Source of the DNA: a virus | Virus record (IMG/VR): IMGVR_UViG_3300036781_000418 | Location: 219,296-283,295 of that record | DNA: 64,000 nucleotides | Direction: 5' to 3' (one strand) | Part shown: positions 444-35,183 of the stretch, piece by piece | Numbering within the stretch: the first letter of the stretch is position 1 | Layout: each line of letters begins with the position of its first letter | The notes under the pieces: model-generated | What the model was told of the DNA's origin: nothing | The model's input: the letters and a program-made list of their open reading frames with translations, nothing else | Database searches by the model: none | Translations under genes and position numbers: made by a program

Positions 444-806
444 ATGATTTTGCTTGAGTACCCCGACAACAAGAGCGCCCGCCAACACCTTACCTTGGGT
501 AAGGACTACGCGGTCGTTCGAGAGCTTGGCAACGGTCTCGTGATCGAGGCCGACAACTCAACTCCTGAGTCGCCCAACTTTCACACGCTGTTGGCTTCAC
601 GCTTCAAGGAAGTCGGTGTTGTGGTAAACCGTGACTGCACGAAAGCGAAGCCGATGCCGTTGGAGCTTGGACCGAGAGCGGTCGAGCTCAACATCATCTG
701 GGACCATGATGACATTGAAGACCTAGCTCCCGACCTTGACTCACGTTACGCCCACTTCAAGTGTGGTTCATGTGGGCACGATTGGTGGGCGGATTTAGGC
801 GATTAA
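444..806 (+). CDS. hypothetical protein (120 aa)
   Basis: ORF track; ends 4 nt before tRNA array. Confidence 0.45.
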   Translation: MILLEYPDNKSARQHLTLGKDYAVVRELGNGLVIEADNSTPESPNFHTLLASRFKEVGVVVNRDCTKAKPMPLELGPRAVELNIIWDHDDIEDLAPDLDSRYAHFKCGSCGHDWWADLGD

Positions 807-809
807 CTT

Positions 810-897
810 GGAGATGTGGCAGAGTGGCCTATCGCACAACCTTGGAAAGGTTGAGGACTTTATCGTCCCATGGGTTCGAATCCCATCATCTCCTCCA
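810..897 (+). tRNA. tRNA-Ser (GGA), class II
   Basis: 7-bp acceptor ggagatg/catctcc, anticodon loop TTGGAAA, long variable arm, T-arm GGTTCGAATCC, encoded CCA. Confidence 0.8.
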
Positions 898-904
898 GAC
901 AGAA

Positions 905-981
905 GCAGGGTAGCTCAGCCAGGTAGAGCGCTGGTCTCATAAGCCAGAGGTCGTGGGTTCAAATCCCTCCCGTTGCAACCA
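905..981 (+). tRNA. tRNA-Met (CAT); acceptor stem imperfect
   Basis: D-arm tagctcagccaggtagagc, anticodon loop CTCATAA, T-loop TTCAAAT, 3' CCA; acceptor pairing has mismatches. Confidence 0.6.
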
Positions 982-1062
982 ACACGTGGACCCTTGTTCA
1001 CGGTACAGCGACCGTAGCGTCGCAGTAGAATTGACTCATCAACAACGCATTGGACCGATGCT

Positions 1063-1374
1063 ATGCAACACAAGATGAACCAACTGATGCGTGTCAGCAA
1101 GACACTTGGTTTCACTGAGTTCGCGTTTCCACTCGAACTCACGTACGGTCCAGCCTACGACGGCTACTGGATTGATCGAGTTGGACGTCTCTTTTCCACC
1201 AAGCGTGGTGAAGTTACGCCGCTGATCGCCAAGTGCACGGCCTTCGTCAAGGGCAACAGCTACGGCCTCATCATCCGTGGTAAGAACAAGTCGGTCTCTG
1301 GAACCGAACTGCTCCATGAACTGCGCAGCTCGCCCGAATGGCCGGTGCTGCTCGAACAATGGGGCAACATGTAA
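1063..1374 (+). CDS. hypothetical protein (103 aa) between tRNA genes
   Basis: ORF track; only sizeable ORF in the 982-1380 spacer. Confidence 0.4.
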   Translation: MQHKMNQLMRVSKTLGFTEFAFPLELTYGPAYDGYWIDRVGRLFSTKRGEVTPLIAKCTAFVKGNSYGLIIRGKNKSVSGTELLHELRSSPEWPVLLEQWGNM

Positions 1375-1380
1375 GATCAT

Positions 1381-1466
1381 GCGCATGTGGTGTAATTGGT
1401 AGCCACACTTCTCTCAAAAGGAAGCGTCCGTAGGGCGTGTCGGTTCGAGTCCGACCATGCGCACCA
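1381..1466 (+). tRNA. tRNA-Leu (CAA), class II
   Basis: perfect acceptor gcgcatg/catgcgc, loop CTCAAAA, long variable arm, CCA. Confidence 0.8.
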
Positions 1467-1712
1467 GGTGAGACCCCCGAAGTGACTAGGACGCGAGGCG
1501 GTCATCGAGTAGAGGCGGCCACGGAATCGTGGCGGTAAGTAGTGAACACAACCTCCTCTACCGACCAGTGAGGTGACTGGATGAGAAAGCAGGGTTAAAC
1601 GCACTGATGAGCTGGTGAGAGTCCAGCGAAACGGGAAGGTGAACAGCCGATCGAGCGCTAGGTCGCGGCTCTCGACGCAGTATCCTTTCCGTATGCGTAA
1701 ATAGAAACATAT

Positions 1713-1798
1713 GCTGGAGTAGCCAAGTGGTTGACGGCAACTGCCTTGTAAGCAGTCGGAGTTATCCCGCGCAGGTTCGAATCCTGTCTCCAGCTCCA
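1713..1798 (+). tRNA. class II tRNA; anticodon loop CTTGTAA reads TGT (Tyr-like scaffold, identity ambiguous)
   Basis: acceptor gctggag/ctccagc, anticodon stem actgc/gcagt, 16-nt variable arm, T-arm, CCA. Confidence 0.65.
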
Positions 1799-2041
1799 AG
1801 AAGTTCCAGGTGACTACGTGTAGGGGGTCTGGCCCAGTGCACACAGAAAATGCGTAGGATATTGGCCGTGAGAACCATGGTTTATGAGGCATGAGAAAAA
1901 GATTTGTCGGGACTGTGCCTCCGGAAACGACATGACCTGCACGAGAATAAGAGCAATGGTAAGCTTTGCAGGGTGCCACAAATATTTGTCAACGCGGAAG
2001 CAGTTGACCGGGGCTCTGTGTTTCATCCCCAACCTATCAAT

Positions 2042-2120
2042 GTCGAAGTGGGAGAGTGGATTACTTCCGACAGGCTGCAACCCTGTAGACGCATCGGTTC
2101 GATTCCGGCCTTCGACTCCA
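2042..2120 (+). tRNA. tRNA-Cys (GCA)
   Basis: acceptor gtcgaag/cttcgac, loop CTGCAAC, T-loop TTCGATT, CCA. Confidence 0.7.
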
Positions 2121-2233
2121 AACGGGACCCTACGTAAGGGTAAAACGTCTGACCTGACGGGGAAACGCTTGAAGGGGCGCCTGACGGTGGGAGAAACAGA
2201 CGACGAAACTGTAGGTCCTTCGGTTTCAACAAT

Positions 2234-2319
2234 GCGACTGTGGCGTAATTGGTAGCCGCGCAACGCTCAGAACGTTGTGGTCCTAGACCGTGGAGGTTCG
2301 AGTCCTCTCAGTCGCACCA
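2234..2319 (+). tRNA. tRNA-Leu (CAG), class II
   Basis: acceptor gcgactg/cagtcgc, loop CTCAGAA, long variable arm, CCA. Confidence 0.8.
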
Positions 2320-2328
2320 TTGATCAAT

Positions 2329-2416
2329 AGCGGGGTAGAGCGTAGTTTGGTAGCGTGTTGGGCTCATAACCCAGCGTCGTAAGACCCCGGAGGTTCGAGT
2401 CCTCCTCCCGCAACCA
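2329..2416 (+). tRNA. tRNA with CAT anticodon and a structured (GTAA-capped) variable arm; Met/Ile(lysidine)-like
   Basis: loop CTCATAA in stem ttggg/cccag, variable arm gtc-gtaa-gac, T-arm ggagg-TTCGAGT-cctcc, CCA; D-stem non-canonical. Confidence 0.55.
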
Positions 2417-2467
2417 CAACAATGGTCCAATAGTGTAGTAGCACGATCAACAAAAGCACATCATCAT

Positions 2468-2630
2468 GGCGGTAGCCAAGCCTAGGAGAGCGCATCTCCC
2501 ACTGATGAAGGAGCAGGTGGAGAATCGGGACTCCTGCGTTGGATCACCAGAATTAAGCAACCGATAGATAACGGTTATCAGAAAGTAGCGTCGAAAGACT
2601 TGTGGGTTCGAGTCCCACCTGAGAGTCACC
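2468..2630 (+). ncRNA. about 160-nt structured RNA ending in a canonical tRNA T-arm (interrupted tRNA or tRNA-like element)
   Basis: several internal hairpins (gcagg..cctgc, aaccg..cggtt) and 3' gtggg-TTCGAGT-cccac; no ORF support. Confidence 0.35.
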
Positions 2631-2743
2631 TAAGACGTGATGGTTTGTACTCAGTGGCGGAATTGGTAAACGCACAACTCCGGCCGCAAGGCCATCTCCG
2701 TGTCGCTCCTTTGTTGCTTTTCATAAACTAGAGGAACTTTCCC

Positions 2744-3190
2744 ATGTCAACCAAGTATGAACTCCACGTCACCACGTGGGAGTGTGATGCTGATCATCAC
2801 TTGACCAAGATTCTCGAGAATCTTAGCCGTGACGACGTTACCGCGTTCGTTGAACTGGCCAAGAAGTTCGCCTCAACACACGCCACACCACCGGGCGTCG
2901 GCAACCACAGTGTGGCCGACGACGTGCTCGTTGAGGCGGTCCAGTCGGTGCTGACAAAGTACCCAGACGCTTACTATCTTCAGCTGCTCTTTGAACAAGA
3001 CGCACCTAAAGATTACCAAGGTGACATCAGCCTTGCTGACTTTTACTGGCAGGCCCTATGCGAGTCGCTGTTGGACTATCCAGTGATCGAGCCGTACCAA
3101 GACGAGTACCACTTTTGCCGCGTCTACTGCGTCCACAAGGTCTATGAAGTCCCAGTCGCGAAGGTCGACGTCACGGAGTGTTTCCAATGA
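2744..3190 (+). CDS. hypothetical protein (148 aa)
   Basis: ORF track; RBS-like gaggaa 9 nt upstream of ATG. Confidence 0.55.
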   Translation: MSTKYELHVTTWECDADHHLTKILENLSRDDVTAFVELAKKFASTHATPPGVGNHSVADDVLVEAVQSVLTKYPDAYYLQLLFEQDAPKDYQGDISLADFYWQALCESLLDYPVIEPYQDEYHFCRVYCVHKVYEVPVAKVDVTECFQ

Positions 3191-3459
3191 GACCGCTGAA
3201 CGCACGCCAGATCGGCGAGCTTGAAGCCCGTGAGTTTCTCGGCGACGAAACGTGGAAGCGTTGGAAGATCGCGTATGACGAAGCCATGGGCTACCGCAAG
3301 ACGCTGAAAGGCAAACCGACGGAGGAGCAGCTGCTGACCCTCCAGAACAACGCAATGGACATCGAGTTCTACGGCTCCGTGCTGTTCCACTCGGCGACCC
3401 TTGCAAACCGAAACATGTGCGGCTGCACTCGATGCGGCCAAGCACGACAGAACAAGTAA
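3187..3459 (+). CDS. hypothetical protein (~90 aa), C-terminal Cys cluster
   Basis: ATGA overlap with upstream stop; CGCTRCG motif. Confidence 0.45.
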   Translation: MRPLNARQIGELEAREFLGDETWKRWKIAYDEAMGYRKTLKGKPTEEQLLTLQNNAMDIEFYGSVLFHSATLANRNMCGCTRCGQARQNK

Positions 3460-3494
3460 ACCGCTCGTTGTTGATTATCCCTTCCACCCTTAGG

Positions 3495-3561
3495 GACCTT
3501 AGTGTAACTGGTAGCATTCCGGATTGATACTCCGGGGGATGGGTTCGAATCCCTGGTCAAA
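3495..3561 (+). tRNA. degenerate tRNA-Ile(GAT)-like pseudogene
   Basis: anticodon arm ccgga-TTGATAC-tccgg and TTCGAAT T-loop present; acceptor and T stems do not pair. Confidence 0.3.
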
Positions 3562-3715
3562 CTCGACGACACTTCTTTGTTTACTTCTCAAAAACGCCGG
3601 CCTTCACGGGTCGGACCTTCGCCGAACGTGGTAGGCGTATCGCTGGCTAAATCGATTATGCGGGCGTAGCTAAGTAAAGACAACTCTTTCTAGTTATCGG
3701 ACTAAACTGGACCAT

Positions 3716-3805
3716 GGAGATATGGCTGAGAGGCTTAAGGCGACGGTTTGCTAAATCGTAGGCCCTTCACCGGGCCCGTGGGTTCGAATCCCACTATCTC
3801 CTCCA
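3716..3805 (+). tRNA. tRNA-Ser (GCT), class II
   Basis: acceptor ggagata/tatctcc, loop TTGCTAA, long variable arm, CCA. Confidence 0.8.
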
Positions 3806-3985
3806 AACACGATGTCACGTCAGATTTTGAGAACTCCGAGGGCCGCACCTCGATAACTTGCGGTCGGTGGTCACGCCATCGTGAATAACGCGTGACGGGT
3901 TCGGCTCTACCCCAGTTAGCAAATGAGCAGGCACGGCAGGAGTCTTTAACGCATCGTTGGACGGAGGTCCATCATGTCCGCTTAT

Positions 3986-4072
3986 GGGGAGTTGGTAGCG
4001 TGGCGCTTAACCGGTTTCGAAAGCCGGCCGCCCTCTTACGGGGGCAGGGTTCGATTCCCTAACTCCCCTCCA
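3986..4072 (+). tRNA. tRNA-Ser (CGA), class II
   Basis: perfect acceptor ggggagt/actcccc, loop TTCGAAA, long variable arm, CCA. Confidence 0.75.
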
Positions 4073-4085
4073 ACTTTACACCATC

Positions 4086-4385
4086 ATGAAACTTCGCTAC
4101 GTTCTTCAGGCACTCAGGGACCAGCTCCCTATTCGCCGCTTCCTACGCAACTTTCTCGTGACGAGAAACGCGTGGGGCCTGTTCCACATCAACTCACACG
4201 TCGCACAGCGCTCAGGTAAGCCTAAGGTCGGCTACCCAACGAAGGCGTCGGCGATTCGAGCTGGTGAGAATATGGGGAAGAAGACGGGCTACCACTACAG
4301 CCCGTACAAGTGCTGCCACTGCGCCGACTTTCACATCGGTCGGAACCGCGACTCCATCGCAGCCCGACCTGAACAACGACCTTAG
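4086..4385 (+). CDS. hypothetical basic protein (99 aa), Cys/His motif CCHCADFH
   Basis: ORF track. Confidence 0.45.
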   Translation: MKLRYVLQALRDQLPIRRFLRNFLVTRNAWGLFHINSHVAQRSGKPKVGYPTKASAIRAGENMGKKTGYHYSPYKCCHCADFHIGRNRDSIAARPEQRP

Positions 4386-5611: not shown

Positions 5612-6289
5612 ATGCTGCTCGCGGCCCTAGCCCTCTCAACCACGATCTCGACCTGTTCCTGGAACAACCCAGGTGCCGATCCGTACATGGGTCGTTTTGA
5701 GGACGCGATCGACCGCTACGAGTTCATCGACGAAGACGTGCGGGCCAGGCTGAAGGCCAAGGTTGCGGCACATGAGTACGACGACATGGTGGAGATCAAG
5801 CGTGACGAGATCCACGGACGGCAGGAGTACTCCAACGAGCTCTCCAACATGAACTTCGGCAAGGGTCGGGTCTGCGTGACGGTGGACCGGTCTGGTTGGA
5901 AGCCGGAGCACGTTGAACGTGGCCTGGTGTTCTGTGTCGACGGCACCTGCATCTTGATTCCCACGGTTTGCCGTAACGTGACCGTAATAACTCGGCTTCA
6001 ACGGCTGACGGGTGGCGCCTCAGCTGGGCCGCTTGAAGGCCAGACGTTCGGTCTCGGTCCAGCTCCAGTGTCGCCACCCACCTCGCTACCGGTCGATGAC
6101 GTCACGTACGGCCTCTCGGCGACACCGGTGGGGCCGAGTACGTTTAGTTCGCCACCGATGTTGTACCAACCAATCGTCGTTCCACCGTTGCCGCCACTCA
6201 CCGCGATCCCCGTCGTGCCCGAGCCGTCCAGCCTGTGGCTGATGCTCGTCGGGCTGGCCATGATCGCGGTTCGAAAGCTCCGTCGGTAA
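5612..6289 (+). CDS. PEP-CTERM sorting-signal protein (putative exosortase substrate)
   Basis: N-terminal signal-like segment; C-terminus VPEPSSLWLMLVGLAMIAVRKLRR matches PEP + TM + Arg-rich. Confidence 0.65.
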   Translation: MLLAALALSTTISTCSWNNPGADPYMGRFEDAIDRYEFIDEDVRARLKAKVAAHEYDDMVEIKRDEIHGRQEYSNELSNMNFGKGRVCVTVDRSGWKPEHVERGLVFCVDGTCILIPTVCRNVTVITRLQRLTGGASAGPLEGQTFGLGPAPVSPPTSLPVDDVTYGLSATPVGPSTFSSPPMLYQPIVVPPLPPLTAIPVVPEPSSLWLMLVGLAMIAVRKLRR

Positions 6290-6591: not shown

Positions 6592-6890
6592 GCGACAAAA
6601 ACCAGCTTGAGCCAGACGACCTTGCGATCGTGATCAAGAGCCTTACTGGCAAGTCCATCGGCAAGATAGTCACCTGCCTCCACAAGAACCCCATGGGGCC
6701 TGACCCCGTGTTCGGTGACGTGTGGCTGGTCCAGTCCTCACACGCCGACCTCATGGTCTTCGTGGACGGCACGACCTCGAACCAAGCCCACATGCCGCAG
6801 GACTGGCTGAAGAAGATTCCCAAAGACCCCATCCCGGACGATGAAGACGTCCTTGAACTTAACCCTACTAAGGAACTGGAGAACGTATGA
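6588..6890 (+). CDS. hypothetical protein (100 aa)
   Basis: ORF track; ATGA overlap. Confidence 0.5.
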   Translation: MSDKNQLEPDDLAIVIKSLTGKSIGKIVTCLHKNPMGPDPVFGDVWLVQSSHADLMVFVDGTTSNQAHMPQDWLKKIPKDPIPDDEDVLELNPTKELENV

Positions 6891-7303: not shown

Positions 7304-8383
7304 ATGAAGATGCATCTGATTTTCTTGAACGACCACTCTGGCTCAATGCAGGGTATCACGCGCTACGCGATGGCTGACTACAACTCAGTCACCAAGGCCG
7401 CTGCCGACGCCGCAGCCGCCCACAACATCCCCTCGACCTTCACGACAATTTCCTTCGGCAAGTACAACGGTGGCCGCTTTGCAGGGCGTGGCTACGCACC
7501 GATGCTGGAATCCCAGTTCGTGCCGTCTGACATCGCCAAGGCCATGACGAGCTGGCCAGCCGACGGCGGCACCCCGCTGTGGGAGGCCTTGATCCTTGCG
7601 ATCAACACCGCCATGTCGGCGCCGGACTACGCCGACCCTGAAACCACCTTCAACGTCGTGCTGACGACCGACGGCCAAGCGACCGACGATTACGAGTACG
7701 GCGGCGCAGCCCAGAAGCTGATGAAGGAGTGCATCGCCACCGACCGCTGGACCTTCGTGTTCCGCGTTCCGCGTGGTGGTGCTCGTTCGATCATCCAGAA
7801 GGGTGTGGACGAAGGCAACGTGATCGAGTGGGAACAGTCCGCAAAGGGTGTCGCCGATTCGACGGCCGCCACGTCGCGTGGTATGCAGGACATGTACCTT
7901 GGTCGCACGCAAGGTGTCCGTTCGACGAAGACCTTCTACTCGAGCCTGAAGGACGTCACCTCCGCCGACGTCAAGGCCGTGCTGACGGACATCTCAAAGG
8001 AAGTCCAACTCTGGCCGGTGTCAGCACCGGAAGCTGGCACGCAGATCCGCACGTTCGTCGAGTCCCGTCTTAACGATGGCAAAGGTGGCAAGCTGCTCAA
8101 GGGTGGTGCGTTCTACCAGCTGGTGAAGACCGAGACGAAGATCCAGGACTACAAGCTCATCGCCATCCGCGACAAGACGTCCGCCTCGATCTACTGCGGT
8201 GCCGCAGCCCGTGACATGCTCGGCCTGCCGAAGTACGGTGACGTTCGCGTTGCGCCGCAGGACCACGGCAACTTCGACGTGTTCATCCAGTCAACCAGCG
8301 TGAACCGCAAGGTCGATGCTGGCACCCAGATCATGTACTGGCCTGGTGTCGGTGTTGCGTACAAGGAGGGCGCCTCAGCCTAA
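7304..8383 (+). CDS. von Willebrand factor A (vWA) domain protein
   Basis: MIDAS-like LIFLNDHSGSM, TPLWEAL, LTTDGQATDD. Confidence 0.65.
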   Translation: MKMHLIFLNDHSGSMQGITRYAMADYNSVTKAAADAAAAHNIPSTFTTISFGKYNGGRFAGRGYAPMLESQFVPSDIAKAMTSWPADGGTPLWEALILAINTAMSAPDYADPETTFNVVLTTDGQATDDYEYGGAAQKLMKECIATDRWTFVFRVPRGGARSIIQKGVDEGNVIEWEQSAKGVADSTAATSRGMQDMYLGRTQGVRSTKTFYSSLKDVTSADVKAVLTDISKEVQLWPVSAPEAGTQIRTFVESRLNDGKGGKLLKGGAFYQLVKTETKIQDYKLIAIRDKTSASIYCGAAARDMLGLPKYGDVRVAPQDHGNFDVFIQSTSVNRKVDAGTQIMYWPGVGVAYKEGASA

Positions 8384-9167: not shown

Positions 9168-9898
9168 ACACCATCGACTACTCCCTCCTGGCTGACGCCA
9201 CCAAGCACTACCGTGACATGGGCTACGCGGCGATTGAGGTGCCGTGGCGCGTCTCTGTCGAGGTCTTGAACATCACCAAGCCAGCGTACGTCACCAACAC
9301 GGACTACAAGATCGAGGGTACCAACAAGGCCCTGATCGCGTCGGGTGAACAGGGCTTCATGTACCTGATGAACAAGGGCCACCTTCCACCAGGCGGCTAC
9401 CAGACCATCACGCCCTGCTTCCGCAACGAGCAGTACGACGCGACACACTCCAAGCAGTTCATGAAGTTGGAGTTGATCGAAGTGGTGGCGGAGTGCCAGG
9501 CGATCGGCCAGCACCACGTGCGAGCGCTGTTGGACGTCGTACTGAACGCCATGAAGAAGCTGGCGCCGTCGGACTACCACCGTGAACGACTGATGGTCGT
9601 GCAGCAGTCGGAGTGGGACCCGTTGGCGGTGCCCGGCACGGTGCAGCTGGACATCGAGGCTGAGTTCAACGACAAGCGCGTCGAACTTGGTTCCTTCGGT
9701 GCACGTCGCGCCCACTTCGGTGCGTGGGTCTACGGCACCGGCCTCGCTGAACCTCGGTTCTCCAAGACCATGCAGGCCCTGAGCCAACAGCAGTACCTTG
9801 AGGCCACCGTAAATAGGAGCGATGAAACGAACGACACCCATGTACAAGCTGCTCCTCACCCTATTCTTGAGCGTCTCACTCGACGCGCAGGCACTTGA
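9164..9898 (+). CDS. class II aminoacyl-tRNA synthetase-like catalytic core (AsnA/EpmA-like)
   Basis: class IIb motif-2-like TITPCFRNE...H..QFMKLELIE and motif-3-like GTGLAEPRF; no anticodon-binding domain. Confidence 0.45.
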   Translation: MNTIDYSLLADATKHYRDMGYAAIEVPWRVSVEVLNITKPAYVTNTDYKIEGTNKALIASGEQGFMYLMNKGHLPPGGYQTITPCFRNEQYDATHSKQFMKLELIEVVAECQAIGQHHVRALLDVVLNAMKKLAPSDYHRERLMVVQQSEWDPLAVPGTVQLDIEAEFNDKRVELGSFGARRAHFGAWVYGTGLAEPRFSKTMQALSQQQYLEATVNRSDETNDTHVQAAPHPILERLTRRAGT

Positions 9899-10637
9899 CG
9901 CTCCACTGCCGCTGACGGCCTGCGTGGCGCTGACACCGTACGGTCTGCCCGTCACACAGAAGCAACGCACCACGAAGATCTGTCGCACGGGCTACGTGCT
10001 TGAGCACGACGACGTCCACCACGTTCCAGTGTGGGTGGCGTACTCGCTCACGCCCGACCAGGCAACGGGCTGCTACCCACGTGTGAGCCACTTCGTGCCT
10101 GAGCCTGGCCTGCCACCTGGTGCGTCCGCTCAGTTAAAGGATTACGCCAAGCACGGCTACGACATCGGCCACCAGGCCAACGACTCCGACATGCGCTGGT
10201 CAAAGCTGACCGAGGAAGAGTCCAACATCTTCGCCAACGCCGCGCCACAGTTGCCCGAGTTCAACCGCGGCATCTGGAAGAAGCTTGAGGACACTACCCG
10301 TGGTTGGGCCATCAGCCGTGGCCACAAGCTTAAGGTCTACATCGCGCCCGTCGTGAACGCCCAAGACAAGGCGATCGGCGTCGACCAAGTTATTGTGCCA
10401 CACGCCTTCGTGAAGGTGTTGGTTGACACCCAGACGAACGAGGTGCTGGCGTTCCTGTTCAAGCACGAGGGCTCGAAGGCCGACCTAAGCACGTTCGTGA
10501 CGAGCTTGGCTGAAGCGCAGCGTCAGAGCGGCGTCATCTTCCCAGTGCCGCCGAACGCGGTCCTATCCACCACCATTTGGCCGGTGACGTTGAAGTCGAA
10601 CCGCGCGGCCAAGTCCAACGTGTGCCTGTTGAAATGA
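9822..10637 (+). CDS. secreted non-specific DNA/RNA endonuclease (EndoG/NUC1/Serratia-nuclease family)
   Basis: signal peptide; GYDIGHQAND (DRGH-like) and NIFANAAPQ...FNRGIWKKLE. Confidence 0.65.
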   Translation: MKRTTPMYKLLLTLFLSVSLDAQALDAPLPLTACVALTPYGLPVTQKQRTTKICRTGYVLEHDDVHHVPVWVAYSLTPDQATGCYPRVSHFVPEPGLPPGASAQLKDYAKHGYDIGHQANDSDMRWSKLTEEESNIFANAAPQLPEFNRGIWKKLEDTTRGWAISRGHKLKVYIAPVVNAQDKAIGVDQVIVPHAFVKVLVDTQTNEVLAFLFKHEGSKADLSTFVTSLAEAQRQSGVIFPVPPNAVLSTTIWPVTLKSNRAAKSNVCLLK

Positions 10638-13310: not shown

Positions 13311-14144
13311 ATGAAAAAACTCCTGCTTTCTGTACTGGTGGTCGCGGCGTCGTTCGCCGTCCACGCAGATCCGGTCCCGGATCCTGGCATGCTCACCTTG
13401 ACCGGCTATCAGAACGGCTCCGCGCCGATCGGTACCGTGACGGTGAATCCGCCCGGCTTGTTCAACAACCAAAGCGAACTGGTCGCGGTCAGCGGCCTCA
13501 AGGGTTCGTTCGACGATGGCTTTGGTGCTGTCAGTCTCAACGCGCTGTTCTGCGTCGAGCTGTTCGCTCCCACGGGCAACATCGGTCAATCCCTGGCCTA
13601 CACGCAGAACACGCCGGGTCTCGGCGCCTACAGCATGGGTTTCACGGCGCTGCAGTCCTCGCGCCTGAACAACCTGTTCGCCAAGGAATTCGCGACCTAC
13701 GGCGTCGTTGGTGGAACTACGGCCACGCAGTCGGCCGCCACGCAGCTCTCCATCTGGGAGATCCTGTACGGCGGTGATGCTGGCTTCGGTGATCTGACGG
13801 GCAACCTGCTGGAAACCCTGGGTGTGGCCGACACGAACGGCTTCTGGTCGACCGACCTGGCCGGTGCACGCACCACGGCTGAAGGCCTGCTGGCTGGCAT
13901 CGACTCGTACGACTCCTCGGGCTTCAACGTCTCGCTGACGTCGTACAACAACGGCCTGTCGAAGCCCGGCTACCAGGACTTCATCTCGGTGGACGTCAGT
14001 CTCGGTTCGCAATGCGGTCTGAACCCGCTGGGTTGCGATCCGACCACGGTGCCGGAACCTGACTCGCTCGCTCTCACCGGTGTCGGTCTGATGGGTCTCG
14101 GCTTCGTCGCTCGCCGTCGCAAGGCCAAGCAGCTGCAAAGCTGA
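13311..14144 (+). CDS. secreted PEP-CTERM protein (signal peptide + C-terminal PEP-CTERM anchor)
   Basis: MKKLLLSVLVVAASFAVHA signal; C-terminus VPEPDSLALTGVGLMGLGFVARRRKAKQ. Confidence 0.7.
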   Translation: MKKLLLSVLVVAASFAVHADPVPDPGMLTLTGYQNGSAPIGTVTVNPPGLFNNQSELVAVSGLKGSFDDGFGAVSLNALFCVELFAPTGNIGQSLAYTQNTPGLGAYSMGFTALQSSRLNNLFAKEFATYGVVGGTTATQSAATQLSIWEILYGGDAGFGDLTGNLLETLGVADTNGFWSTDLAGARTTAEGLLAGIDSYDSSGFNVSLTSYNNGLSKPGYQDFISVDVSLGSQCGLNPLGCDPTTVPEPDSLALTGVGLMGLGFVARRRKAKQLQS

Positions 14145-14292: not shown

Positions 14293-15180
14293 ATGTCCGC
14301 AATTCTCACCAAGCTCGTCGCATGGCTGAAGTCCATCTTCGCGTCCGCCGAAGTTCAAGTCAAGCAGGAAGTCACGACCATCGAGGCCGTGGCCAAGCAG
14401 AAGATTCAGGCCGCTGAACAGACCGTCGTGACCACCTTCGAGCAGAAGCTCCAAGGCTGGATTCCAGACGCGATCGACACGCGCGACCAGGTGTTCACGC
14501 TGTCCGCCCCACTGCCACCGTCCGTCGACCTGCGCTCCCAACTCAAGCCAGTCGACAACCAAGGTGCGCTCAACTCGTGCGTCTCCCACGCCGTCACGTC
14601 CGCACTTGAAACCGTGCTGAAGGTCTCCGACCTCTCGCGTCTCTTCACGTACTACAACGCACGTTCGCTTGAAGGCCGCACGGGCATGGACGCTGGCTGC
14701 GCGATTCGAAACGCCGTCAAGGGCGCCGTCACCTACGGCATCGCACCTGAAACCGACTGGCCGTACGTCACCACGCAGGTTCTGGTCGCCCCACCAACGA
14801 AGTCTTACACCGACGGTACCCCGTTGAAGGCACGCATCGGCTACGCCCAAGTCACGACCTTGACCGCGCTGAAGACCGCCCTCGCCACGGGTCTGCCAGT
14901 CGTCTTCGGCTTCACGGTCCCTGACGTCTTCGCCAGCGCCGTTCAGTCCGTCGGCACCGCCTACACGGGCGTCCTGCCGTACCCAACTGCCGCAAACAAG
15001 TTCATCGGTGCGCACGCGGTCCTGGCCGTCGGCTACGATGACCCGTCGGGCATGGTGATCGTGCGTAACTCGTTCGGTCCTGCATGGGGCAAGTCCGGTT
15101 ACTTCATGATGCCGTATGCATGGTTCGCCAACATGACCGGCCTGGTGTCAGACGCATGGGTGCTGAGCCCTAAGGCCTAA
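14293..15180 (+). CDS. papain-like cysteine peptidase (C1 family)
   Basis: QGALNSCVSHA (Cys site), HAVLAVGYDD (His site), NSFGPAWGKSGYF. Confidence 0.65.
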   Translation: MSAILTKLVAWLKSIFASAEVQVKQEVTTIEAVAKQKIQAAEQTVVTTFEQKLQGWIPDAIDTRDQVFTLSAPLPPSVDLRSQLKPVDNQGALNSCVSHAVTSALETVLKVSDLSRLFTYYNARSLEGRTGMDAGCAIRNAVKGAVTYGIAPETDWPYVTTQVLVAPPTKSYTDGTPLKARIGYAQVTTLTALKTALATGLPVVFGFTVPDVFASAVQSVGTAYTGVLPYPTAANKFIGAHAVLAVGYDDPSGMVIVRNSFGPAWGKSGYFMMPYAWFANMTGLVSDAWVLSPKA

Positions 15181-17084: not shown

Positions 17085-17471
17085 ATGACGACCATTCTTC
17101 GATGGCCGCCGACCTCGGTAACGCACCATGAAGTCTACAAGGACCAGTTCACCTGGGTCAGCGAAGACGAACGCGACAAGCTGATCGCCGAAGTTCAACG
17201 GATCGCGGCCGACTACATCGTCTTGGCTCCTCGTTCGGCTAACTTGATCCACAGCTTCGCCACCATGGCGGAGACTGCTGGCTACCACTTGTCCATGGGC
17301 ATGGACATTCGCAACCACTACTTGCTCTACCACACGAGCCCGCTGACGAAGCGGTGGCGCGATAACCCCTACTCGCACGACATCCGCTTCGGTATCGACT
17401 TTTCACCTGACCACCCAGACGCGATCTCAACTCTGATCTTGAAGGAAGTATGGATTCAACTTCATCCGTAA
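17085..17471 (+). CDS. hypothetical protein (128 aa)
   Basis: ORF track. Confidence 0.5.
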   Translation: MTTILRWPPTSVTHHEVYKDQFTWVSEDERDKLIAEVQRIAADYIVLAPRSANLIHSFATMAETAGYHLSMGMDIRNHYLLYHTSPLTKRWRDNPYSHDIRFGIDFSPDHPDAISTLILKEVWIQLHP

Positions 17472-18070
17472 AGGTGCTGTTCCTCGACGTGGACGGCGTG
17501 CTGAACACATCGACCAGCTGCCTGCTGAAGTGCGGCATGTACCTGTCGACGTGCGCCCAGCGTGACGCGTGGTGGGAGCTGTTTCACCTGGTCGGTCATG
17601 ATGACCAGGTGCCGTACGGTCCGACCTACAGTGTCAACTCGATCGACCCAATGGCCGTCGGGCTGGTGAACCGCTTGTTGGACAAGGAACCGACCCTGCG
17701 GATCGTATTCTCCAGCTCGCACCGTTCGTTCTTTGCGGCCTCAACCTACGAGTACCCGTGCGAGTTCGCCTCGCCGATTCACTTGGAGCGGCTGACGACG
17801 TACCTCACGTCGCTTGGTATCAAGATTCAGGGTCGGTTGATCGGCATCACACCGCGCCTGCACACTCGCCGTGGTCTGGAGATCAACACCTGGCTGCAGG
17901 CCTACGACGGTCCGGAGATCACGCACCACGCGGCGGTCGACGACGAGGCGGCTATCTACCCGTACGAGACGACGCTGATCCGAACCGACGCGAAGTTCGG
18001 CCTGACGGCGGACAAGTACTTCGAGCTCTGCAACGCGCTGGGCATCCACGAATCACCGATCATCTACTGA
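17450..18070 (+). CDS. HAD-superfamily phosphatase (Pnk-phosphatase/nucleotidase-like)
   Basis: motif I VLFLDVDGVLNT. Confidence 0.55.
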   Translation: MDSTSSVKVLFLDVDGVLNTSTSCLLKCGMYLSTCAQRDAWWELFHLVGHDDQVPYGPTYSVNSIDPMAVGLVNRLLDKEPTLRIVFSSSHRSFFAASTYEYPCEFASPIHLERLTTYLTSLGIKIQGRLIGITPRLHTRRGLEINTWLQAYDGPEITHHAAVDDEAAIYPYETTLIRTDAKFGLTADKYFELCNALGIHESPIIY

Positions 18071-20439: not shown

Positions 20440-21507
20440 ATGACCGCTCTCAAAACCTTCGAGCCAAACACCCTTGGTCGTGACATTGTCCTTGGTGACA
20501 TGCACGGCAAGCTTGGGCTCGTGCAGAAGGTGCTGACCCACCTGAACTACGATCCACAAGTTGACCGTCTCTTCTCGGTTGGTGACCTTGTTGACCGTGG
20601 CGAGGACAACCTCGGCTGCCTACGACTCCTGCGTCAGGGCCTGAACGCCGTACAGTCCAACCATGGCGAGTTCATGTCCCACGCCTACTTCGGTCCGAAC
20701 GACTCGACGTTGGCGATGAACTGGCCCAGCAACGGCGGCATGTGGGCGATCGACCAATGGGTTGAGTGGCACGACTTTCTGCACACCAACAAGCACATGA
20801 GTCAAGAGGCGGCCGAGTTGGCCGAACTTGCTGAGCTCCAACGTGAGCTGCCCGTGCTGATCACCATCAACCACCGCAACGGCAAGAAGTACCACATCGT
20901 CCACGCGGAGTTGCCGTACCTTCGGATGTACGAGCCGATCACGGACCGTCAGCTGTCTGACCCTGCCAAGGTACAGTTCATGTCGGATCGAAAGTATGAC
21001 CGGTACAACCTTGAGCGCTGCTTCCTTTGGCTGCGTGACATGTTCGGCTCGTTCCATGAGGCGGACATGTCGAACGAAGCCGTCTTTAAGCGGCGAGTTG
21101 CGGGAATGGCCCACCACTCGCACATCAACATGCGTGAAATCTTCACGGACCAGCTGAGCCACGTAATCTCAGGCCACACGCCAGTACACCGCCCGTTCAC
21201 CATGGTGGGCCAGACGAACATCGACACGGGCTCCTATAAGGAGTTTAAGTACAAGTGGGCCGGTGTCACCGCGTTGGTCCTAGACGACTGGACCTTCTGG
21301 AAGGCTCGATCCGAAGGTGTCGAGCAGGTTCAGCCGATGACTATGACCTTTGAGGACTTTGAAAGCTATGGACAGAACAATGACGTTCAAGTGCTCCCCG
21401 GAACAGGAGGAGTACATCATGGATCACCTACAACGGGGGACGAAGGACGTCCTGATCCATCACTCGGAACGGACGTGGATTGCGAACCACGTACACAAGA
21501 AGGTTGA
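20440..21507 (+). CDS. Ser/Thr protein phosphatase (PPP/lambda-phosphatase-like)
   Basis: GDMHG, GDLVDRGEDN, SNHGEF motifs. Confidence 0.7.
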   Translation: MTALKTFEPNTLGRDIVLGDMHGKLGLVQKVLTHLNYDPQVDRLFSVGDLVDRGEDNLGCLRLLRQGLNAVQSNHGEFMSHAYFGPNDSTLAMNWPSNGGMWAIDQWVEWHDFLHTNKHMSQEAAELAELAELQRELPVLITINHRNGKKYHIVHAELPYLRMYEPITDRQLSDPAKVQFMSDRKYDRYNLERCFLWLRDMFGSFHEADMSNEAVFKRRVAGMAHHSHINMREIFTDQLSHVISGHTPVHRPFTMVGQTNIDTGSYKEFKYKWAGVTALVLDDWTFWKARSEGVEQVQPMTMTFEDFESYGQNNDVQVLPGTGGVHHGSPTTGDEGRPDPSLGTDVDCEPRTQEG

Positions 21508-22436: not shown

Positions 22437-23540
22437 ATGGAACGATACCTGGTCGGCGGTGCAGTCCGCGACGCGCTGATGAACGTGACACCAAAAGACC
22501 GTGACTGGGTCCTTGTCGGCGCTACGCAGCAGGACATTGACGACATGGTCAAGGAAGGGTACCAGTGGGTTGGTGCCGACTTCCCCGTGCTGATCCACCC
22601 AAAAACGAAAGAGGAGCACGCCCTCGCCCGAGTCGAACGTAAAGTCGGCCATGGCTACAACGGCTTTGAGGTGGACACGGAGGGCGTCACCCTCGAGCAG
22701 GACCTGGCACGTCGCGACCTGACCATCAACGCGATGGCTTGGGACACGAGCCCATCGATGGTGTACGAAGACGACATCATCGACCCGTACGGCGGTCGCA
22801 ATGACATCAAGCACAAGATCATCCGTCACACGACGATGGCCTTCGTTGAAGATCCGCTCCGAGCCCTGCGTGTCGCGCGCTTCGCCGCCCGCCTCAGCTT
22901 CAGCGTCCACCCCACCACACACGACCTCATCAAGCACATGGGAACGTCCGGTGAACTGGAACACCTGACCGACGAACGTGTCTGGGCCGAGGTGAAGAAG
23001 GGCCTAAGCGGTCCGCACCCCACCGTCTTCATGTACCAGCTCTACAACCTCGGCATCATCAAGCACTGCGCAGTACTGCGTGAGGTCTTTCCATGGACCT
23101 ACGAGTTCGTCGCCTACGGCGTGACGAAGTACCTGCGCATGGTCAAGGAGGAAGATCGCTTCGAACTGGGCCTGGCCTGCATGATGGCGTGTGGTGACGT
23201 TGAAAAGATCAAGGCCATTCCGTCCAGGACGAAGAAGGTCTACAACAACATCGGCTACCTGAACGAGATCCATGACTGGTCAAACGTGGCGGCCGACAAG
23301 TTGGTGACGGTCATCACGAAGATCGGCGGCCTACGTGAAGGCACGATGTTTGACGACATCGTCACCTGCCTCCAGCTGACGAAGCCAACGCAGATCGAGA
23401 TCATCGACATCTTGACGGCCAGCCGCATGGTGATGCAGCAAGTTCGAGCCGACCAGTTCCCAGACCTTGAAGGCCAAGCGCTCGGGGCCGCGATGATCCA
23501 AGAACGTGCGAAGCGCGTTGCTGAGCTGTTGTTACAATAA
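22437..23540 (+). CDS. cca: tRNA nucleotidyltransferase (CCA-adding enzyme, class II)
   Basis: [11 protein letters not shown] (GGxVRD), [26 protein letters not shown]. Confidence 0.8.
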
Positions 23541-27807: not shown

Positions 27808-28428
27808 GTGCCTAATGAGGCAGCATCGTTTGGAGAACCTGTGACTAAGATTCTGTACGTGTACGAACATGAGTTGGAGCTTGACGTTGGATTTGAGCTC
27901 CTGAAGCTGGAGCGGTTGGAACGCTACGCGTTCGTCGGTCAGCGCTGTGGATCCCCATCTGGCCGCGCCCTGTTCGCCAGCCTGCGAGACGAGCCGGCGA
28001 TCCGCTGTTTCAACTGCGGCCTGAAGGCCAGCGTTTGGATCGTGGACCGCTCCGCGAACGAGCAGTACCCTAACCGACAGCAGGGCGTCATAAATCGTCG
28101 GATGAACCTCTTCGGCCGGAACGCTGAAGGCGAGCTGGTGATGATGACCCAGGACCACATCATCCCAGTATCCAAGGGTGGTTTCACGGTCCTCGAGAAC
28201 TTGCGTCCCGCGTGTGAGCGCTGTAACTCACGACGTGGGAACACGATGAACGCGAACGATCTAAAATTCATGAAGCAGCACCCACACCTGCACCTTCATG
28301 GTAAGGTCAAGAAAGGCAAGAAGCGGCATGCGCCAAGACATGAACAAGCTCCTGACGGAACGGGAGCGCCAACACTCGCACGCGAAGTACCGTGCAATCC
28401 GTCACACGAAGTACAACTCGCTGCTTAA
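27808..28428 (+). CDS. HNH endonuclease
   Basis: QDHIIPVSKGG...N...CERCNSRRGN; GTG start per track. Confidence 0.6.
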   Translation: MPNEAASFGEPVTKILYVYEHELELDVGFELLKLERLERYAFVGQRCGSPSGRALFASLRDEPAIRCFNCGLKASVWIVDRSANEQYPNRQQGVINRRMNLFGRNAEGELVMMTQDHIIPVSKGGFTVLENLRPACERCNSRRGNTMNANDLKFMKQHPHLHLHGKVKKGKKRHAPRHEQAPDGTGAPTLAREVPCNPSHEVQLAA

Positions 28429-31541: not shown

Positions 31542-31766
31542 ATGTACCTGCACACGATCGACGAACCCCGCTCCAAGGCCTTCTTCCGCGGTCGCCTGAC
31601 CAAGGTGGAGGAGATCCAGATTCGTGCCGCCTCGGAGGCCGGGTTGGAGAGCATGATCGACACCCACTTCTCGGCGGACCGCATCACCATCGAGACCCTC
31701 AAGGAGGTCAAGGCCGACCTCCACGCCGAACTCGCCGCCTTCACCCAGACCAACTGGTGGAAGTGA
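31542..31766 (+). CDS. hypothetical protein (74 aa)
   Basis: ORF track. Confidence 0.45.
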   Translation: MYLHTIDEPRSKAFFRGRLTKVEEIQIRAASEAGLESMIDTHFSADRITIETLKEVKADLHAELAAFTQTNWWK

Positions 31767-32650
31767 TGTCCGAGGACTCAATCCCATTGGAGTTTAGCAA
31801 AATGTCAACTGAACAAAAATCATCCGCCGTCATCGTGATCATCGGCGTCGTGGCGGTCCTTGGGGCCGTCGCCACCTTCCTCGTCTGGCTCTTGCTCATG
31901 ACCACCCTTACGGTGGAACCGGGCCATGAGCAGGTCATCGTGGACAAACCCTACTTCTTCGGCCATGAGGGCGTCCGCACTGAACCGCTGAAGGACGGCC
32001 GCATCACGGTGTGGCGCACCACCACGTCCTACGACGTGAACATGACGCCACAGTCCACCCACGTCGTCTTCGATGACTTCAGCTCGCACGACAACATCCT
32101 GTTGGACTTCGAGACGACGATCCAGTTCCGCTACACGAACTCAGTGACGCTCATCTCCAAGTTCGGCGAGGAGTGGTTCGCGAACAACGTGGGTCGTCAG
32201 TACGGCGCCATCGTCCGAGAAGCCGTGAAACGCCGCACGATGTCGGACATGATGTCGGACGTCGACACCGCCACGCAGTTGGACGCTGAGGTCACGCTCG
32301 CCTTGGAGAAGCACGTCAAGGACAACGGCCTGCCCGTTCAAATCCTCGGCGTCTCCCTTGGCCGTGCCAAGCCGAACCCCAACGTCCTGGCGCAGATGAA
32401 CGAGACGGCGGCCCAGCAGCAACGCCAGAAGACCTTGGTCGCCGCGACGGCCGCTGAAGGTCAACGTGAGCTGGAGCAGGTGGCCAAGGCGAAGGCGGAC
32501 AACGCGTACCGCAACGCCATGAACTTGACCCCTGAGATGTTCATCCAGCTCGAGAAGATCAAGCGCTACTCGGACGCTTGCCAGAAACCCGGCAACGTGT
32601 GCGTGGTGGACGCGACGGGCAACACCAACGTGAACGTCGGCGTGAAGTAA
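31757..32650 (+). CDS. SPFH/band-7 (HflK/C-prohibitin-like) membrane protein
   Basis: N-terminal TM then TVEPGHEQVIVDKPYFFG and coiled-coil QQQRQKTLVAATAAEGQRELEQ. Confidence 0.6.
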   Translation: MEVMSEDSIPLEFSKMSTEQKSSAVIVIIGVVAVLGAVATFLVWLLLMTTLTVEPGHEQVIVDKPYFFGHEGVRTEPLKDGRITVWRTTTSYDVNMTPQSTHVVFDDFSSHDNILLDFETTIQFRYTNSVTLISKFGEEWFANNVGRQYGAIVREAVKRRTMSDMMSDVDTATQLDAEVTLALEKHVKDNGLPVQILGVSLGRAKPNPNVLAQMNETAAQQQRQKTLVAATAAEGQRELEQVAKAKADNAYRNAMNLTPEMFIQLEKIKRYSDACQKPGNVCVVDATGNTNVNVGVK

Positions 32651-33834: not shown

Positions 33835-34346
33835 ATCTAGATCAACGCTAAATAGACTACGTGCTTCCCAGTCCTGAATAAGGTTAGCACACCTTCGATA
33901 GTTGAGCTACAATACACCTATCGACGCTGCAACAACATTGGCAATCAAATGAACTTCACTCGCTCCATCAACAAACACAATCGATTCTGGCAACGCCAGG
34001 ATACGACCATGTTTGTGCGCGAGCAGAAGCATGAGATTGATAATAGCACCTCCCCAGGACGGAGGATCAGTACCGAGTAAGATACTCGAACTGTTCGAAT
34101 CTAAACCTGGGGAGCTATGAAAGTAGCTCCCCAGGTCCGTTTTAAGACCGCCTTTGCTTCATTTGGCGGGATATAAATCAAAGACTGCTAAGAAACGACC
34201 GAGTACTCTTCAGGTCGCCGAGCACGGAAAGGGAATGTTGGTAATGAGATCTTGCGTGTGCAAGATCTCATTCTTAGTCACACACGGTGTCGTGCCTAGT
34301 AGCAGGTCCTGCGTAGTAGGTTGTGAGTGTGACTAAGAATGAGAAT

Positions 34347-34421
34347 GGGAGTATGGCGTAGTCGGAAACGTACTTGGCTCTTACCCATGTGTCCACGGTT
34401 CGAATCCGTGTGCTCCCACCA
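34347..34421 (+). tRNA. tRNA-Lys (CTT)
   Basis: acceptor gggagta/tgctccc, loop CTCTTAC, T-loop TTCGAAT, CCA. Confidence 0.7.
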
Positions 34422-34429
34422 TCCAACAT

Positions 34430-34504
34430 GCCTCCGTCGTCTAGTGGCTAGGACATTGCACTTTCACTGCAAGAAAGACGGATCGAAACCGTTCGGAGGC
34501 ACCA
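34430..34504 (+). tRNA. tRNA-Glu (TTC)
   Basis: acceptor gcctccg/cggaggc, loop CTTTCAC, CCA. Confidence 0.75.
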
Positions 34505-34548
34505 ACACTAAGGACGATGAAAGTCGCCCTTCTAAGTAGAATGAGCGT

Positions 34549-34776
34549 ATGAAGCTTCCATCTACACACCAAATCGGCGACAACGTCAACTACACCCTCA
34601 AGCAAGAGGGACCTTGCCGCCTTATCGTACCAGCCATCGTACGACGTGTCATCTTTACTGAAAGCAAGGTGATTTACGACCTTACTACAAAAGATAACGT
34701 CGTTCAAGAAGTTGATTCAGTTTGGATCAGCTCAGCGGAGATGGAGCAAGACAGTTCCCCAGTAGCACAGTGGTAG
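34549..34776 (+). CDS. hypothetical protein (75 aa)
   Basis: ORF track; 3' end overlaps tRNA-Asn by ~20 nt. Confidence 0.4.
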   Translation: MKLPSTHQIGDNVNYTLKQEGPCRLIVPAIVRRVIFTESKVIYDLTTKDNVVQEVDSVWISSAEMEQDSSPVAQW

Positions 34777-34831
34777 TTGCGCCTGACTGTTAATCAGGAT
34801 GTCGGTGGTTCGAGCCCATCCTGGGGAGCCA
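34756..34831 (+). tRNA. tRNA-Asn (GTT)
   Basis: acceptor tccccag/ctgggga, loop CTGTTAA, CCA. Confidence 0.75.
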
Positions 34832-34842
34832 ACAAGATTTAT

Positions 34843-34918
34843 GGGTCCGTAGCTCAGTGGTAGAGCGTCTGCCTGAAGAGCAGAGCGTCGTCGGTTCGAA
34901 TCCGACCGTGACCCACCA
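34843..34918 (+). tRNA. tRNA-Phe (GAA)
   Basis: D-arm tagctcagtggtagagc, loop CTGAAGA, T-loop TTCGAAT, CCA; one bulge in acceptor. Confidence 0.65.
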
Positions 34919-34919
34919 T

Positions 34920-34995: not shown

Positions 34996-35004
34996 ATCCA
35001 ACAT

Positions 35005-35078: not shown

Positions 35079-35087
35079 ACTTACAAT

Positions 35088-35179: not shown

Positions 35180-35183
35180 ACAT

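Follow-up and report, generated by a model that had tools for sequence, protein, structure and literature searches.

Three transfer RNA (tRNA) genes in a 64,000-nt stretch of phage DNA (IMG/VR record IMGVR_UViG_3300036781_000418, positions 219,296 to 283,295; hereafter the window) combine a long, structured variable arm with the anticodons UGU (t1), CAU (t2) and GUU (t3), none of which belongs to Leu, Ser or Tyr (coordinates in Table 1). Their folds are real, with anticodon loops of 7 nt, and the family of each gene recurs across many unrelated phage tRNA arrays, including those of cultured coliphages, and is scarcely present in cellular genomes. Judged from their sequences, all three are probably functional phage tRNAs whose decoding follows the anticodon, built on long-armed bodies of the Leu/Ser/Tyr kind. 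If so, t1 would decode ACA as Thr, t2 the initiator AUG as N-formylmethionine (fMet), and t3 AAC and AAU as Asn, each being charged with its cognate amino acid and used by the ribosome. The source of the window is an uncultured tailed phage, of whose genome the window is only a part.

Folds, homologues and distribution of the three genes

A first-pass annotation of the window had proposed three genes with long structured variable arms. ARAGORN called tRNAs with exactly the same boundaries, each scored above the gathering threshold of the Rfam tRNA model (29 bits), and each variable region contains a hairpin. All three genes have a 7-bp acceptor stem, a 5-bp T stem (a 7/5 architecture) and an encoded CCA end, and their cloverleaf folds leave 7-nt anticodon loops reading CUUGUAA (t1), CUCAUAA (t2) and CUGUUAA (t3). 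With 14, 14 and 22 nt (t1, t2, t3), their variable regions exceed 10 nt and hold a stem-loop, as in class II tRNAs; the Leu, Ser or Tyr anticodons of that class are replaced by UGU, CAU and GUU. The arms of t1 (GGA-GUUA-UCC) and t2 (GUC-GUAA-GAC) consist of a 3-bp hairpin and 3-4 unpaired 3' bases, a Leu/Tyr-like layout shorter than the arms of the window's Ser tRNAs, and the hairpin of t3 is CCGU-CUAGA-ACGG, flanked by GUA/UAU. The D stem of t1 has 3 bp with an enlarged D loop, a trait also found in 22 of the 24 long members of the Thr(UGU) family, and the last base of its arm serves as position 48 in the Levitt pair G15:C48. In t2 the D stem spans four positions with an A11·G24 mismatch, and t3 has a regular 4-bp D stem with a D loop of 7 nt. 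The earlier description of the genes as class II scaffolds applies fully to t1, which has the 3-bp D stem and a covarying 15:48 pair, and to t3 only in part, because its D stem has 4 bp.

Since a fold drawn from one sequence might be mis-registered, we gathered homologues. A pattern made from the D arm and loop of t1 recovered 84-86-nt Thr(UGU) genes in five viral contigs, and two further patterns demanded that the anticodon loop and the T loop lie far apart. The initiator-type pattern GGGCUCAUAACCC yielded 69 phage loci with long-armed GGGCUCAUAACCC tRNAs, and the Asn pattern CUGUUAA at least 119 loci, all locus-finding patterns presupposing a canonical T loop. Homologues of the same layout showed 79-88% identity per window gene (80-88% for t1, 79-87% for t3). 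The alignment of the long Thr(UGU) family (24 genes) has 97% of its cells paired; compensatory changes affect 20 of the 23 pairs, and the five pairs of the anticodon stem all covary; none of 500 shuffles did as well, and slid controls were 30-45% paired. Ten t3-like Asn genes were 95.7% paired, with compensatory change in 17 of 28 pairs, and the acceptor, anticodon and T helices of ten t2-like CAU genes were paired at 90-100%. Pairs in the variable arm covary in all three families, and in the Thr family its last base covaries with position 15 (G:C in 19, A:U in 4). The 7-nt loops are invariant across the families (YUUGUAA, CUGUUAA and CUCAUAA). The covarying 5-bp anticodon stems and the Levitt pair therefore establish loops of 7 nt and the anticodons UGU, CAU and GUU. 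The loops CTTGTAA, CTCATAA and CTGTTAA and their anticodons had been read correctly at first pass, and the covarying stems and invariant loops contradict the suspicion, voiced at the same time, of a mis-registered fold.

The same evidence bears on whether the genes could instead be Tyr tRNAs with a shifted or 8-nt loop, or with a wrongly drawn fold, filling a missing Tyr slot. CTTGTAA and CTGTTAA are each one edit away from CTGTAAA, some long Asn genes elsewhere descend from Tyr tRNAs, and the first-pass statement that no Tyr tRNA lies elsewhere is true of the window, where neither ARAGORN at default and relaxed thresholds nor Rfam found a Tyr(GTA) gene. That gap weighs little, because Gly, Ala and Pro tRNAs are missing from the window as well and the window is only part of the genome. 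The covarying anticodon stems leave invariant 7-nt loops, not 8-nt ones, and none of the genes has the full Tyr set of a GUA anticodon, U35 and A73: t1 has G35 and U73, t3 has U36 and G73, and t2 has A35 within CAU. Moreover, genuine Tyr(GUA) genes occur together with these long-armed genes in other phages, as in locus L001, which has two of them, and in the cultured phage Bas33 (HildyBeyeler; PMC11619597). We consider a Tyr identity extremely improbable.

In loci that had been selected via another tRNA, long arms were present in 19 of 71 genes for Thr(UGU), in none of the 56 for Thr(CGU/GGU/AGU) (Fisher 5e-6) and in 5.9% of the remaining class I tRNAs. Long arms were also seen in 14 of 30 Ile(UAU) and 12 of 60 Cys(GCA) genes, these counts coming from pattern-selected loci; one such Ile(UAU) gene lies at 582-674 of L001, and the window itself has no long-armed Ile(UAU) or Cys(GCA). 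At least two long-armed types occur together in 44 loci, and all three types in four. A pattern for the t1 subfamily matched only four contigs among 185,579 bacterial and archaeal species (one genome each), all of them contigs of metagenome-assembled genomes.

In phage isolates, t1 is 88% identical to an unannotated 86-nt gene of Synechococcus phage BUCT-ZZ01; a further match, 87 nt long and labelled 'tRNA-Thr', occurs in about 95 T5-like phages of Salmonella and Escherichia, which have the arm GGAGUAAUCC in common. T5's own Thr(UGU) gene is a 75-nt class I tRNA, and in JLBYU40 an 87-nt Thr(UGU) gene occupies the syntenic slot of this 75-nt gene, between flanks that are 87-90% identical. Bas33 has an 87-nt Thr(UGU) and an 86-nt Asn(GUU) in addition to its Tyr(GUA) and lacks Lys(UUU), so that it combines long Thr(UGU) with long Asn(GUU) as the window does. 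The Thr genes of JLBYU40/Bas33 and BUCT-ZZ01 are 80-88% identical to t1 over the full length and, like t1, have the 3-bp D stem, the loop, a GGAG-NNA-UCC arm hairpin and the pairs G1-C72/C2-G71. The Bas33 Asn gene, which matches 588 phage records, mostly annotated tRNA-Asn and 83-86 nt long, is unlike t3 in having a different body, a 3-bp D stem, G1-C72 and a 15-nt arm. For t3 only weak matches were found in the phage collection, to Bacillus phage tRNA-Ser genes. No t2-type long-armed initiator was found in phage isolates by BLAST, the nearest matches of t2 being 75-nt tRNA-fMet/Met genes.

We also observed the converse oddity, phage tRNA-Leu genes of 74-78 nt in which a 5-6-nt variable loop replaces the long arm. 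They account for 72 of the 173 distinct Leu genes in the fetched loci, for example in BUCT-ZZ01 (L009; 2608-2681, 3466-3543 and 8529-8606), L008 (1035-1111) and L202 (1814-1890 and 6776-6852). BUCT-ZZ01 additionally carries, at 6601-6676, a tRNA with the amber-reading anticodon CUA; its long-armed Thr(UGU) lies about 500 nt upstream.

Acceptor-end identity marks and origin of the bodies

We compared acceptor-end marks over 2,204 distinct tRNAs from the window and 197 phage loci. In Escherichia coli the Thr set includes G1-C72 and C2-G71. In the indirect Asn pathway, U1-A72 is the pair read by GatCAB. Thr identity resides in acceptor pairs and the anticodon, with position 73 weak or unimportant, and Asn identity in the anticodon and G73; Leu and Tyr require A73, the Tyr determinants being U35 and A73, Ser identity relies on the arm, with G1-C72/G2-C71 conserved, and formylation requires a 1:72 mismatch and a purine-pyrimidine pair at 11:24 (R11:Y24) (PMC9976931). 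The bacterial Thr set is present in t1 (G1-C72, C2-G71, G35 and U36), whose position 73 is U. Across the 24 long Thr(UGU) genes G1-C72 is kept in 23 and C2-G71 in all, with pairs 3-7 free to vary. Of these genes 23 start with G1C2, and their position 73 (U in 13, A in 9, G and C in one each) follows the spectrum of 104 short Thr tRNAs (U in 76, A in 24), unlike that of other isotypes: A73 occurs in 98 of 101 Leu and 66 of 68 Tyr tRNAs, and 97 of 120 Ser tRNAs start with GG.

The marks of Asn are likewise present in t3 (GUU, G73 and U1-A72). G73 and U1-A72 occur in 99 and 77 of 109 long Asn genes, and in 49 and 34 of 53 short ones. The initiator-type gene t2 has an A1·A72 mismatch, the pairs G2-C71/C3-G70/G4-C69, A73 and GGGCUCAUAACCC, that is, a CAU anticodon on three G-C pairs (G29-31:C39-41). 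In ten long CAU genes position 1:72 is unpaired in seven and a weak U-A in three, and G2-C71, C3-G70 and G4-C69 are invariant, with A73 as a further mark of the family; the anticodon-stem G-C trio is invariant in t2 homologues too, but the search pattern required it. At the initiator pair R11:Y24, A11 faces G24 in t2 and its closest homologues, which keeps the purine at 11 in a non-standard pair. As far as sequence tells, the acceptor ends carry the marks that would be read by the synthetases ThrRS, AsnRS (or a non-discriminating AspRS with GatCAB) and MetRS with the formyltransferase, and appear to be without those read by LeuRS and TyrRS (A73) or SerRS (G1-C72/G2-C71). The codon-reading change entertained in the first-pass annotation thus found no support, the acceptor ends bearing Thr, Asn and initiator marks and not those of Leu, Ser or Tyr.

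The origin of the long-armed genes was approached by comparing their bodies, defined as the sequence without the acceptor stem. Long-armed Asn genes of related loci have 77-84% of the body in common with Leu, Ser or Tyr tRNAs. The gene of L185 agrees with a Leu(CAA) gene over 84% of its body and that of L139 with a Ser(GCU) gene over 81%; the anticodon stem-loop of L088 matches that of a Tyr tRNA apart from A36 to U36, and L133 has the body of the Thr-long family, each of the four with an Asn-type acceptor end and G73. For t3 the best class II body match is a Bacillus phage tRNA-Ser(UGA), at 78%. Some of the long Asn genes are clearly class II tRNAs that were remodelled, and the group would have had several origins, in bodies of the Leu, Ser, Tyr and long Thr types. 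In a comparison of cores, with the arm removed and the anticodon masked, the nearest neighbours of long Thr and Asn genes were scattered over many isotypes, and the long CAU genes alone grouped clearly, with class I initiators. Because anticodon and acceptor marks switched together, the identity switch looks complete and not like a source of miscoding. As an evolutionary history, in which Asn genes came from Leu, Ser or Tyr bodies, the switch proposed at first pass can be retained; read as a source of miscoding it finds no support, the acceptor end and discriminator being Asn-type as well.

A competing explanation holds that these are missense tRNAs, charged by SerRS or LeuRS and delivering Ser or Leu at ACA, AAY (Y, pyrimidine) or AUG codons as deliberate or tolerated mistranslation. 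Recognition by both enzymes depends on the tRNA body and discriminator, not on the anticodon, and the long arm is the main Ser determinant (PMC9976931). Precedents are allo-tRNAs with G73 or U73, which insert Ser at non-Ser codons in E. coli (PMC5389517), and nev-tRNAs, class II tRNAs with Gly or Ile anticodons (PMC3333845) that are reported to be misacylated with Leu in vitro (PMC4300185). Several features of the genes themselves also weigh against identity following the anticodon. The U73 of t1 is that of the window's three Ser tRNAs, and the window's other two Thr tRNAs have A73. G73, a Ser-length arm of 22 nt and a Ser-like body, 78% identical to a phage tRNA-Ser, come together in t3, for which some serylation is conceivable. 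About 9 of the 24 long Thr(UGU) genes join A73 to a G1-C2 start, a combination that is also Leu-like. The Rfam score of t2 is only 35 bits, and its A11·G24 mismatch stands where initiators have R11:Y24. In addition, the frequencies given here are biased, because the loci came from patterns that presuppose a canonical T loop.

Other observations argue against miscoding. Remodelling has taken the acceptor ends away from the Ser and Leu types: G2-C71 is lacking in t1 and t3, A73 is missing in 15 of 24 long Thr genes, and U1-A72 is present in 77 of 109 long Asn genes. The short Leu/Tyr-type hairpins of t1 and t2 differ from the window's Ser arms, and the 7/5 architecture of all three genes differs from the 8/4 or 9/3 of allo-tRNAs. 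In JLBYU40 the long gene stands where closely related genomes have an ordinary Thr(UGU), and the families persist in hundreds of lytic phages, for which proteome-wide miscoding of their own genes would be costly. On balance, missense decoding seems improbable to us.

It is also conceivable that the genes have no translational use and serve as decoys for host nucleases or toxins, as regulatory RNAs, or are decaying duplicates. Irregular tRNA-like sequences do occur within the arrays, t3 duplicates an ordinary Asn(GUU) gene located 250 nt upstream in the same array, and some allo-tRNAs appear inactive in translation (PMC5389517). However, all helices are kept by compensatory change across distant phages, and the anticodon loop, T loop, G18G19, Levitt pair, identity marks and encoded CCA are conserved. 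Furthermore, t1 is the window's sole UGU isoacceptor, and a decoy would need no cognate acceptor-end marks. We regard such non-translational roles as very improbable and favour cognate decoding by working tRNAs.

The tRNA arrays and other features of the window

Among the open reading frames (ORFs) of the window, many of them small, are genes for a CCA-adding enzyme, an RNA ligase and a tail fibre that bears an S74 chaperone domain; no aminoacyl-tRNA synthetase gene was found among the ORFs scanned. Megablast against phage isolates, protein-seeded locus searches and an exact-protein lookup, which between them covered cultured phages and IMG/VR contigs, found no match to the window, and the nearest relative recovered, L006, is distant (46-72% amino acid identity over two ORFs). 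The tRNA genes form two arrays, at about 800-4100 and 34300-40200. ARAGORN counted 27 tRNAs at its default threshold, to which the Rfam model added the third CAU tRNA of Table 1, with boundaries 35184-35255, and a weak match at 3495-3559. With t1, Thr(CGU) and Thr(GGU), the Thr codon box is complete in the window. Owing to the two further CAU tRNAs of class I length, t2 is one of three CAU genes and not the only one.

Table 1 Long-armed tRNAs, ordinary tRNAs and tRNA-related features of the window
Feature	Position	Strand	Details
t1, long-armed tRNA-Thr(UGU)	1713-1798	+	86 nt; ARAGORN tgt; Rfam 60.3 bits
t2, long-armed initiator-type tRNA(CAU)	2329-2416	+	88 nt; ARAGORN cat; Rfam 35.3 bits
t3, long-armed tRNA-Asn(GUU)	35088-35179	+	92 nt; ARAGORN gtt; Rfam 52.9 bits
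Ordinary tRNA-Asn(GUU)	34756-34831	+	76 nt; ARAGORN; UCCC...GGGA-G acceptor end identical to that of t3
Ordinary tRNA-Thr(CGU)	39148-39223	+	ARAGORN
Ordinary tRNA-Thr(GGU)	40090-40164	+	ARAGORN
Second CAU tRNA, class I length	905-977	+	ARAGORN, Rfam; candidate elongator Met or Ile2
Third CAU tRNA, class I length	35184-35258	+	Rfam 53.5 bits; missed by ARAGORN at default
Hammerhead-ribozyme-like three-way junction	1599-1698	+	Spacer between tRNA-Leu(CAA) and t1
HAD domain of 'Swiss Army Knife' RNA-repair proteins (HAD_SAK_2)	17450-18070	+	
Calcineurin-like metallophosphoesterase	20440-21507	+	Possible RNA end-healing partner
CCA-adding enzyme / poly(A) polymerase family protein	22437-23540	+	
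PTH2 peptidyl-tRNA hydrolase	40563-41084	+	E 8.6e-28; directly after second tRNA array
RNA ligase	43085-44164	+	PF09414; phrog_24030; N-terminal HNH-like stretch

Several irregular or degenerate tRNA-like sequences also lie within the arrays, at 337-422, 2531-2627, 3495-3559, 35940-36007, 36097-36170, 36836-36908 and 40512-40592 (all +), and were detected solely at relaxed ARAGORN thresholds or as weak Rfam matches. Several of them have a perfect acceptor stem and CCA end but odd loops, and the one at 337-422 has a seemingly long arm and a CUUCUAA loop. The window's three tRNA-Ser genes, at 810-897, 3716-3805 and 3986-4072 (all +), carry U73 in place of the usual bacterial G73. With its 4-bp T stem and a weak tRNA-Sec-like score in Rfam, which at 36 bits stays below threshold, the Ser(CGA) gene among them resembles the 8/4 phage tRNA-Ser of Mukai et al.

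The presence of the PTH2 hydrolase, CCA-adding enzyme, RNA ligase, HAD domain and phosphoesterase (Table 1) suggests that the phage invests in tRNA upkeep. The spacer upstream of t1 holds a complete hammerhead-like core with stem I ACGCA/UGCGU, CUGAUGA at 1604-1610, stem II GCUGG/CCAGC, GAA and A at H17; its long stem III is opened by an A15.1-U16.1 pair and contains an insertion of about 40-45 nt. The minimum-free-energy fold is exactly this junction, and the predicted cleavage falls at 1693|1694, 19 nt before t1. The Rfam Hammerhead_3 score is 18.8 bits, below the gathering score, and chance alone would produce the bare motif about once. The element may process the array transcript.

Two ORFs, 5612-6289 and 13311-14144 (+), end in a PEP-CTERM sorting motif, a hint that the host may be Gram-negative and possess an exosortase system. 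The same region also encodes a papain-like protease (14293-15180) as well as an SPFH/Band-7 protein (31757-32650). A 359-aa protein encoded at 7304-8383 (+) belongs to phrog_26613 and has no Pfam or PDB match; its homologues, 33-46% identical, adjoin tRNA arrays in L006, L169 and L070. Other nucleases of the window are a non-specific DNA/RNA endonuclease (9822-10637, +), an RNase T-family exonuclease (57840-58475, -) and an HNH endonuclease (27808-28428, +).

Relation to known tRNAs and to tRNA-cutting defence

In textbooks, the long variable arm is limited in bacteria to Leu, Ser, Tyr and Sec tRNAs. Like these canonical class II tRNAs, the window's genes have a long arm with a hairpin, and t1 also the 3-bp D stem and position-48 arm base, but their anticodons and acceptor marks are those of Thr, Asn and fMet. 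Allo-tRNAs are similar in having a long arm, a non-Leu/Ser/Tyr anticodon and G73 or U73, and in being bacterial or phage-associated (Mukai et al. 2017, PMC5389517). They differ in their 8/4 or 9/3 branches, their long D stem with a tetraloop and their retained Ser identity, by which Ser is inserted at other codons, whereas the window's three genes have 7/5 branches, D arms of the ordinary kind and acceptor ends that agree with the anticodon. Nev-tRNAs are also class II with non-Leu/Ser anticodons (Hamashima et al. 2012, PMC3333845), including a UAU type, and long-armed Ile(UAU) recurs in phage loci as well. In contrast to the present genes, whose discriminator and first pairs match the anticodon, they are eukaryotic (nematode) and reportedly undergo the Leu misacylation mentioned above. 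Nev-tRNAs retain A73 as a Leu mark; the window's genes, in a phage context, have U73 (t1) and G73 (t3).

A limited, incomplete literature search found no description of a long arm on phage Thr, Asn or initiator tRNAs. The arm goes unmentioned in the papers on phage Thr/Asn rescue tRNAs, and the database records of long-armed relatives are labelled merely tRNA-Thr or tRNA-Asn. The window's genes are new members of families that are already public and annotated by anticodon. What sets them apart from known non-canonical long-armed tRNAs appears, on sequence grounds, to be that identity follows the anticodon.

Some of the isoacceptors concerned are also targets of tRNA nucleases recently described in anti-phage defence. 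The PARIS nuclease AriB, which contacts the D loop, cleaves the E. coli tRNAs for Lys(UUU), Thr(UGU) and Asn(GUU) (PMC12409363), and P2-OLD destroys tRNA-Thr(UGU), with phage Thr(UGU) genes rescuing the cells (PMC12445682). The nuclease-resistant replacement tRNAs of phages resemble the window's genes in their isoacceptors (Thr UGU, Asn GUU), their location in phage arrays and the RNA-repair genes alongside; they differ in being class I and in escaping via base changes in the anticodon stem-loop or D loop. The long arm could act differently, by changing the elbow and core of the tRNA such that host tRNA-cutting defence nucleases would no longer bind or cut. Of the arm's conceivable benefits, escape from host nucleases that target these isoacceptors is the leading candidate, although we hold it to be less likely than not. 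A more general and somewhat less likely version is that phages repeatedly re-house nuclease-targeted identities (Thr-UGU, Asn-GUU, initiator Met and Ile-UAU) in Leu/Ser/Tyr-type bodies, the long arm being a general shield against PARIS AriB, OLD-type Toprim nucleases or VapC-like toxins that leaves charging and decoding normal. In the literature searched, no proposal was found that gives the long variable arm a role in nuclease escape.

Bas33 was rescued from PARIS by T5 tRNA-Lys alone, whereas T7 required both Lys and Thr (PMC12409363), which fits the long-armed Thr and Asn tRNAs of Bas33 being functional and spared. The Bas33 Thr gene keeps the nuclease motifs, UAAUCA and paired CNG, in its anticodon stem, and any resistance would therefore stem from elsewhere in the molecule. 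T5 Thr(UGU) being class I, the published experiments with T5 tRNAs are no test of the arm. Two findings count against nuclease evasion. Only 9 of 88 genes for Lys(UUU), the chief target of PARIS, are long-armed, and the retention of nuclease motifs differs weakly between long and short genes (CNG motif in 14 of 24 versus 20 of 52 for Thr, and in 61 of 109 versus 20 of 53 for Asn). The evasion step is thus circumstantial, and the Bas33 argument indirect.

The occurrence of the arm on Thr, Asn and initiator identities in hundreds of phages, together with its repeated origins among Asn tRNAs, suggests that the arm itself is under selection. Of the known exceptions to the class II rule, nev-tRNAs and the allo-tRNAs tested are charged according to body and not anticodon, and the others are presumed to be, so that they miscode; the phage genes would instead decode faithfully from such a body. 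Annotation is affected, because isotype callers and identity rules take Thr and Asn tRNAs to be class I, and the genes offer natural scaffolds for tRNA engineering. If the arm does shield these tRNAs from host nucleases, it would be a counter-defence based on tRNA structure, unlike the point mutations of the anticodon stem-loop that are already known.

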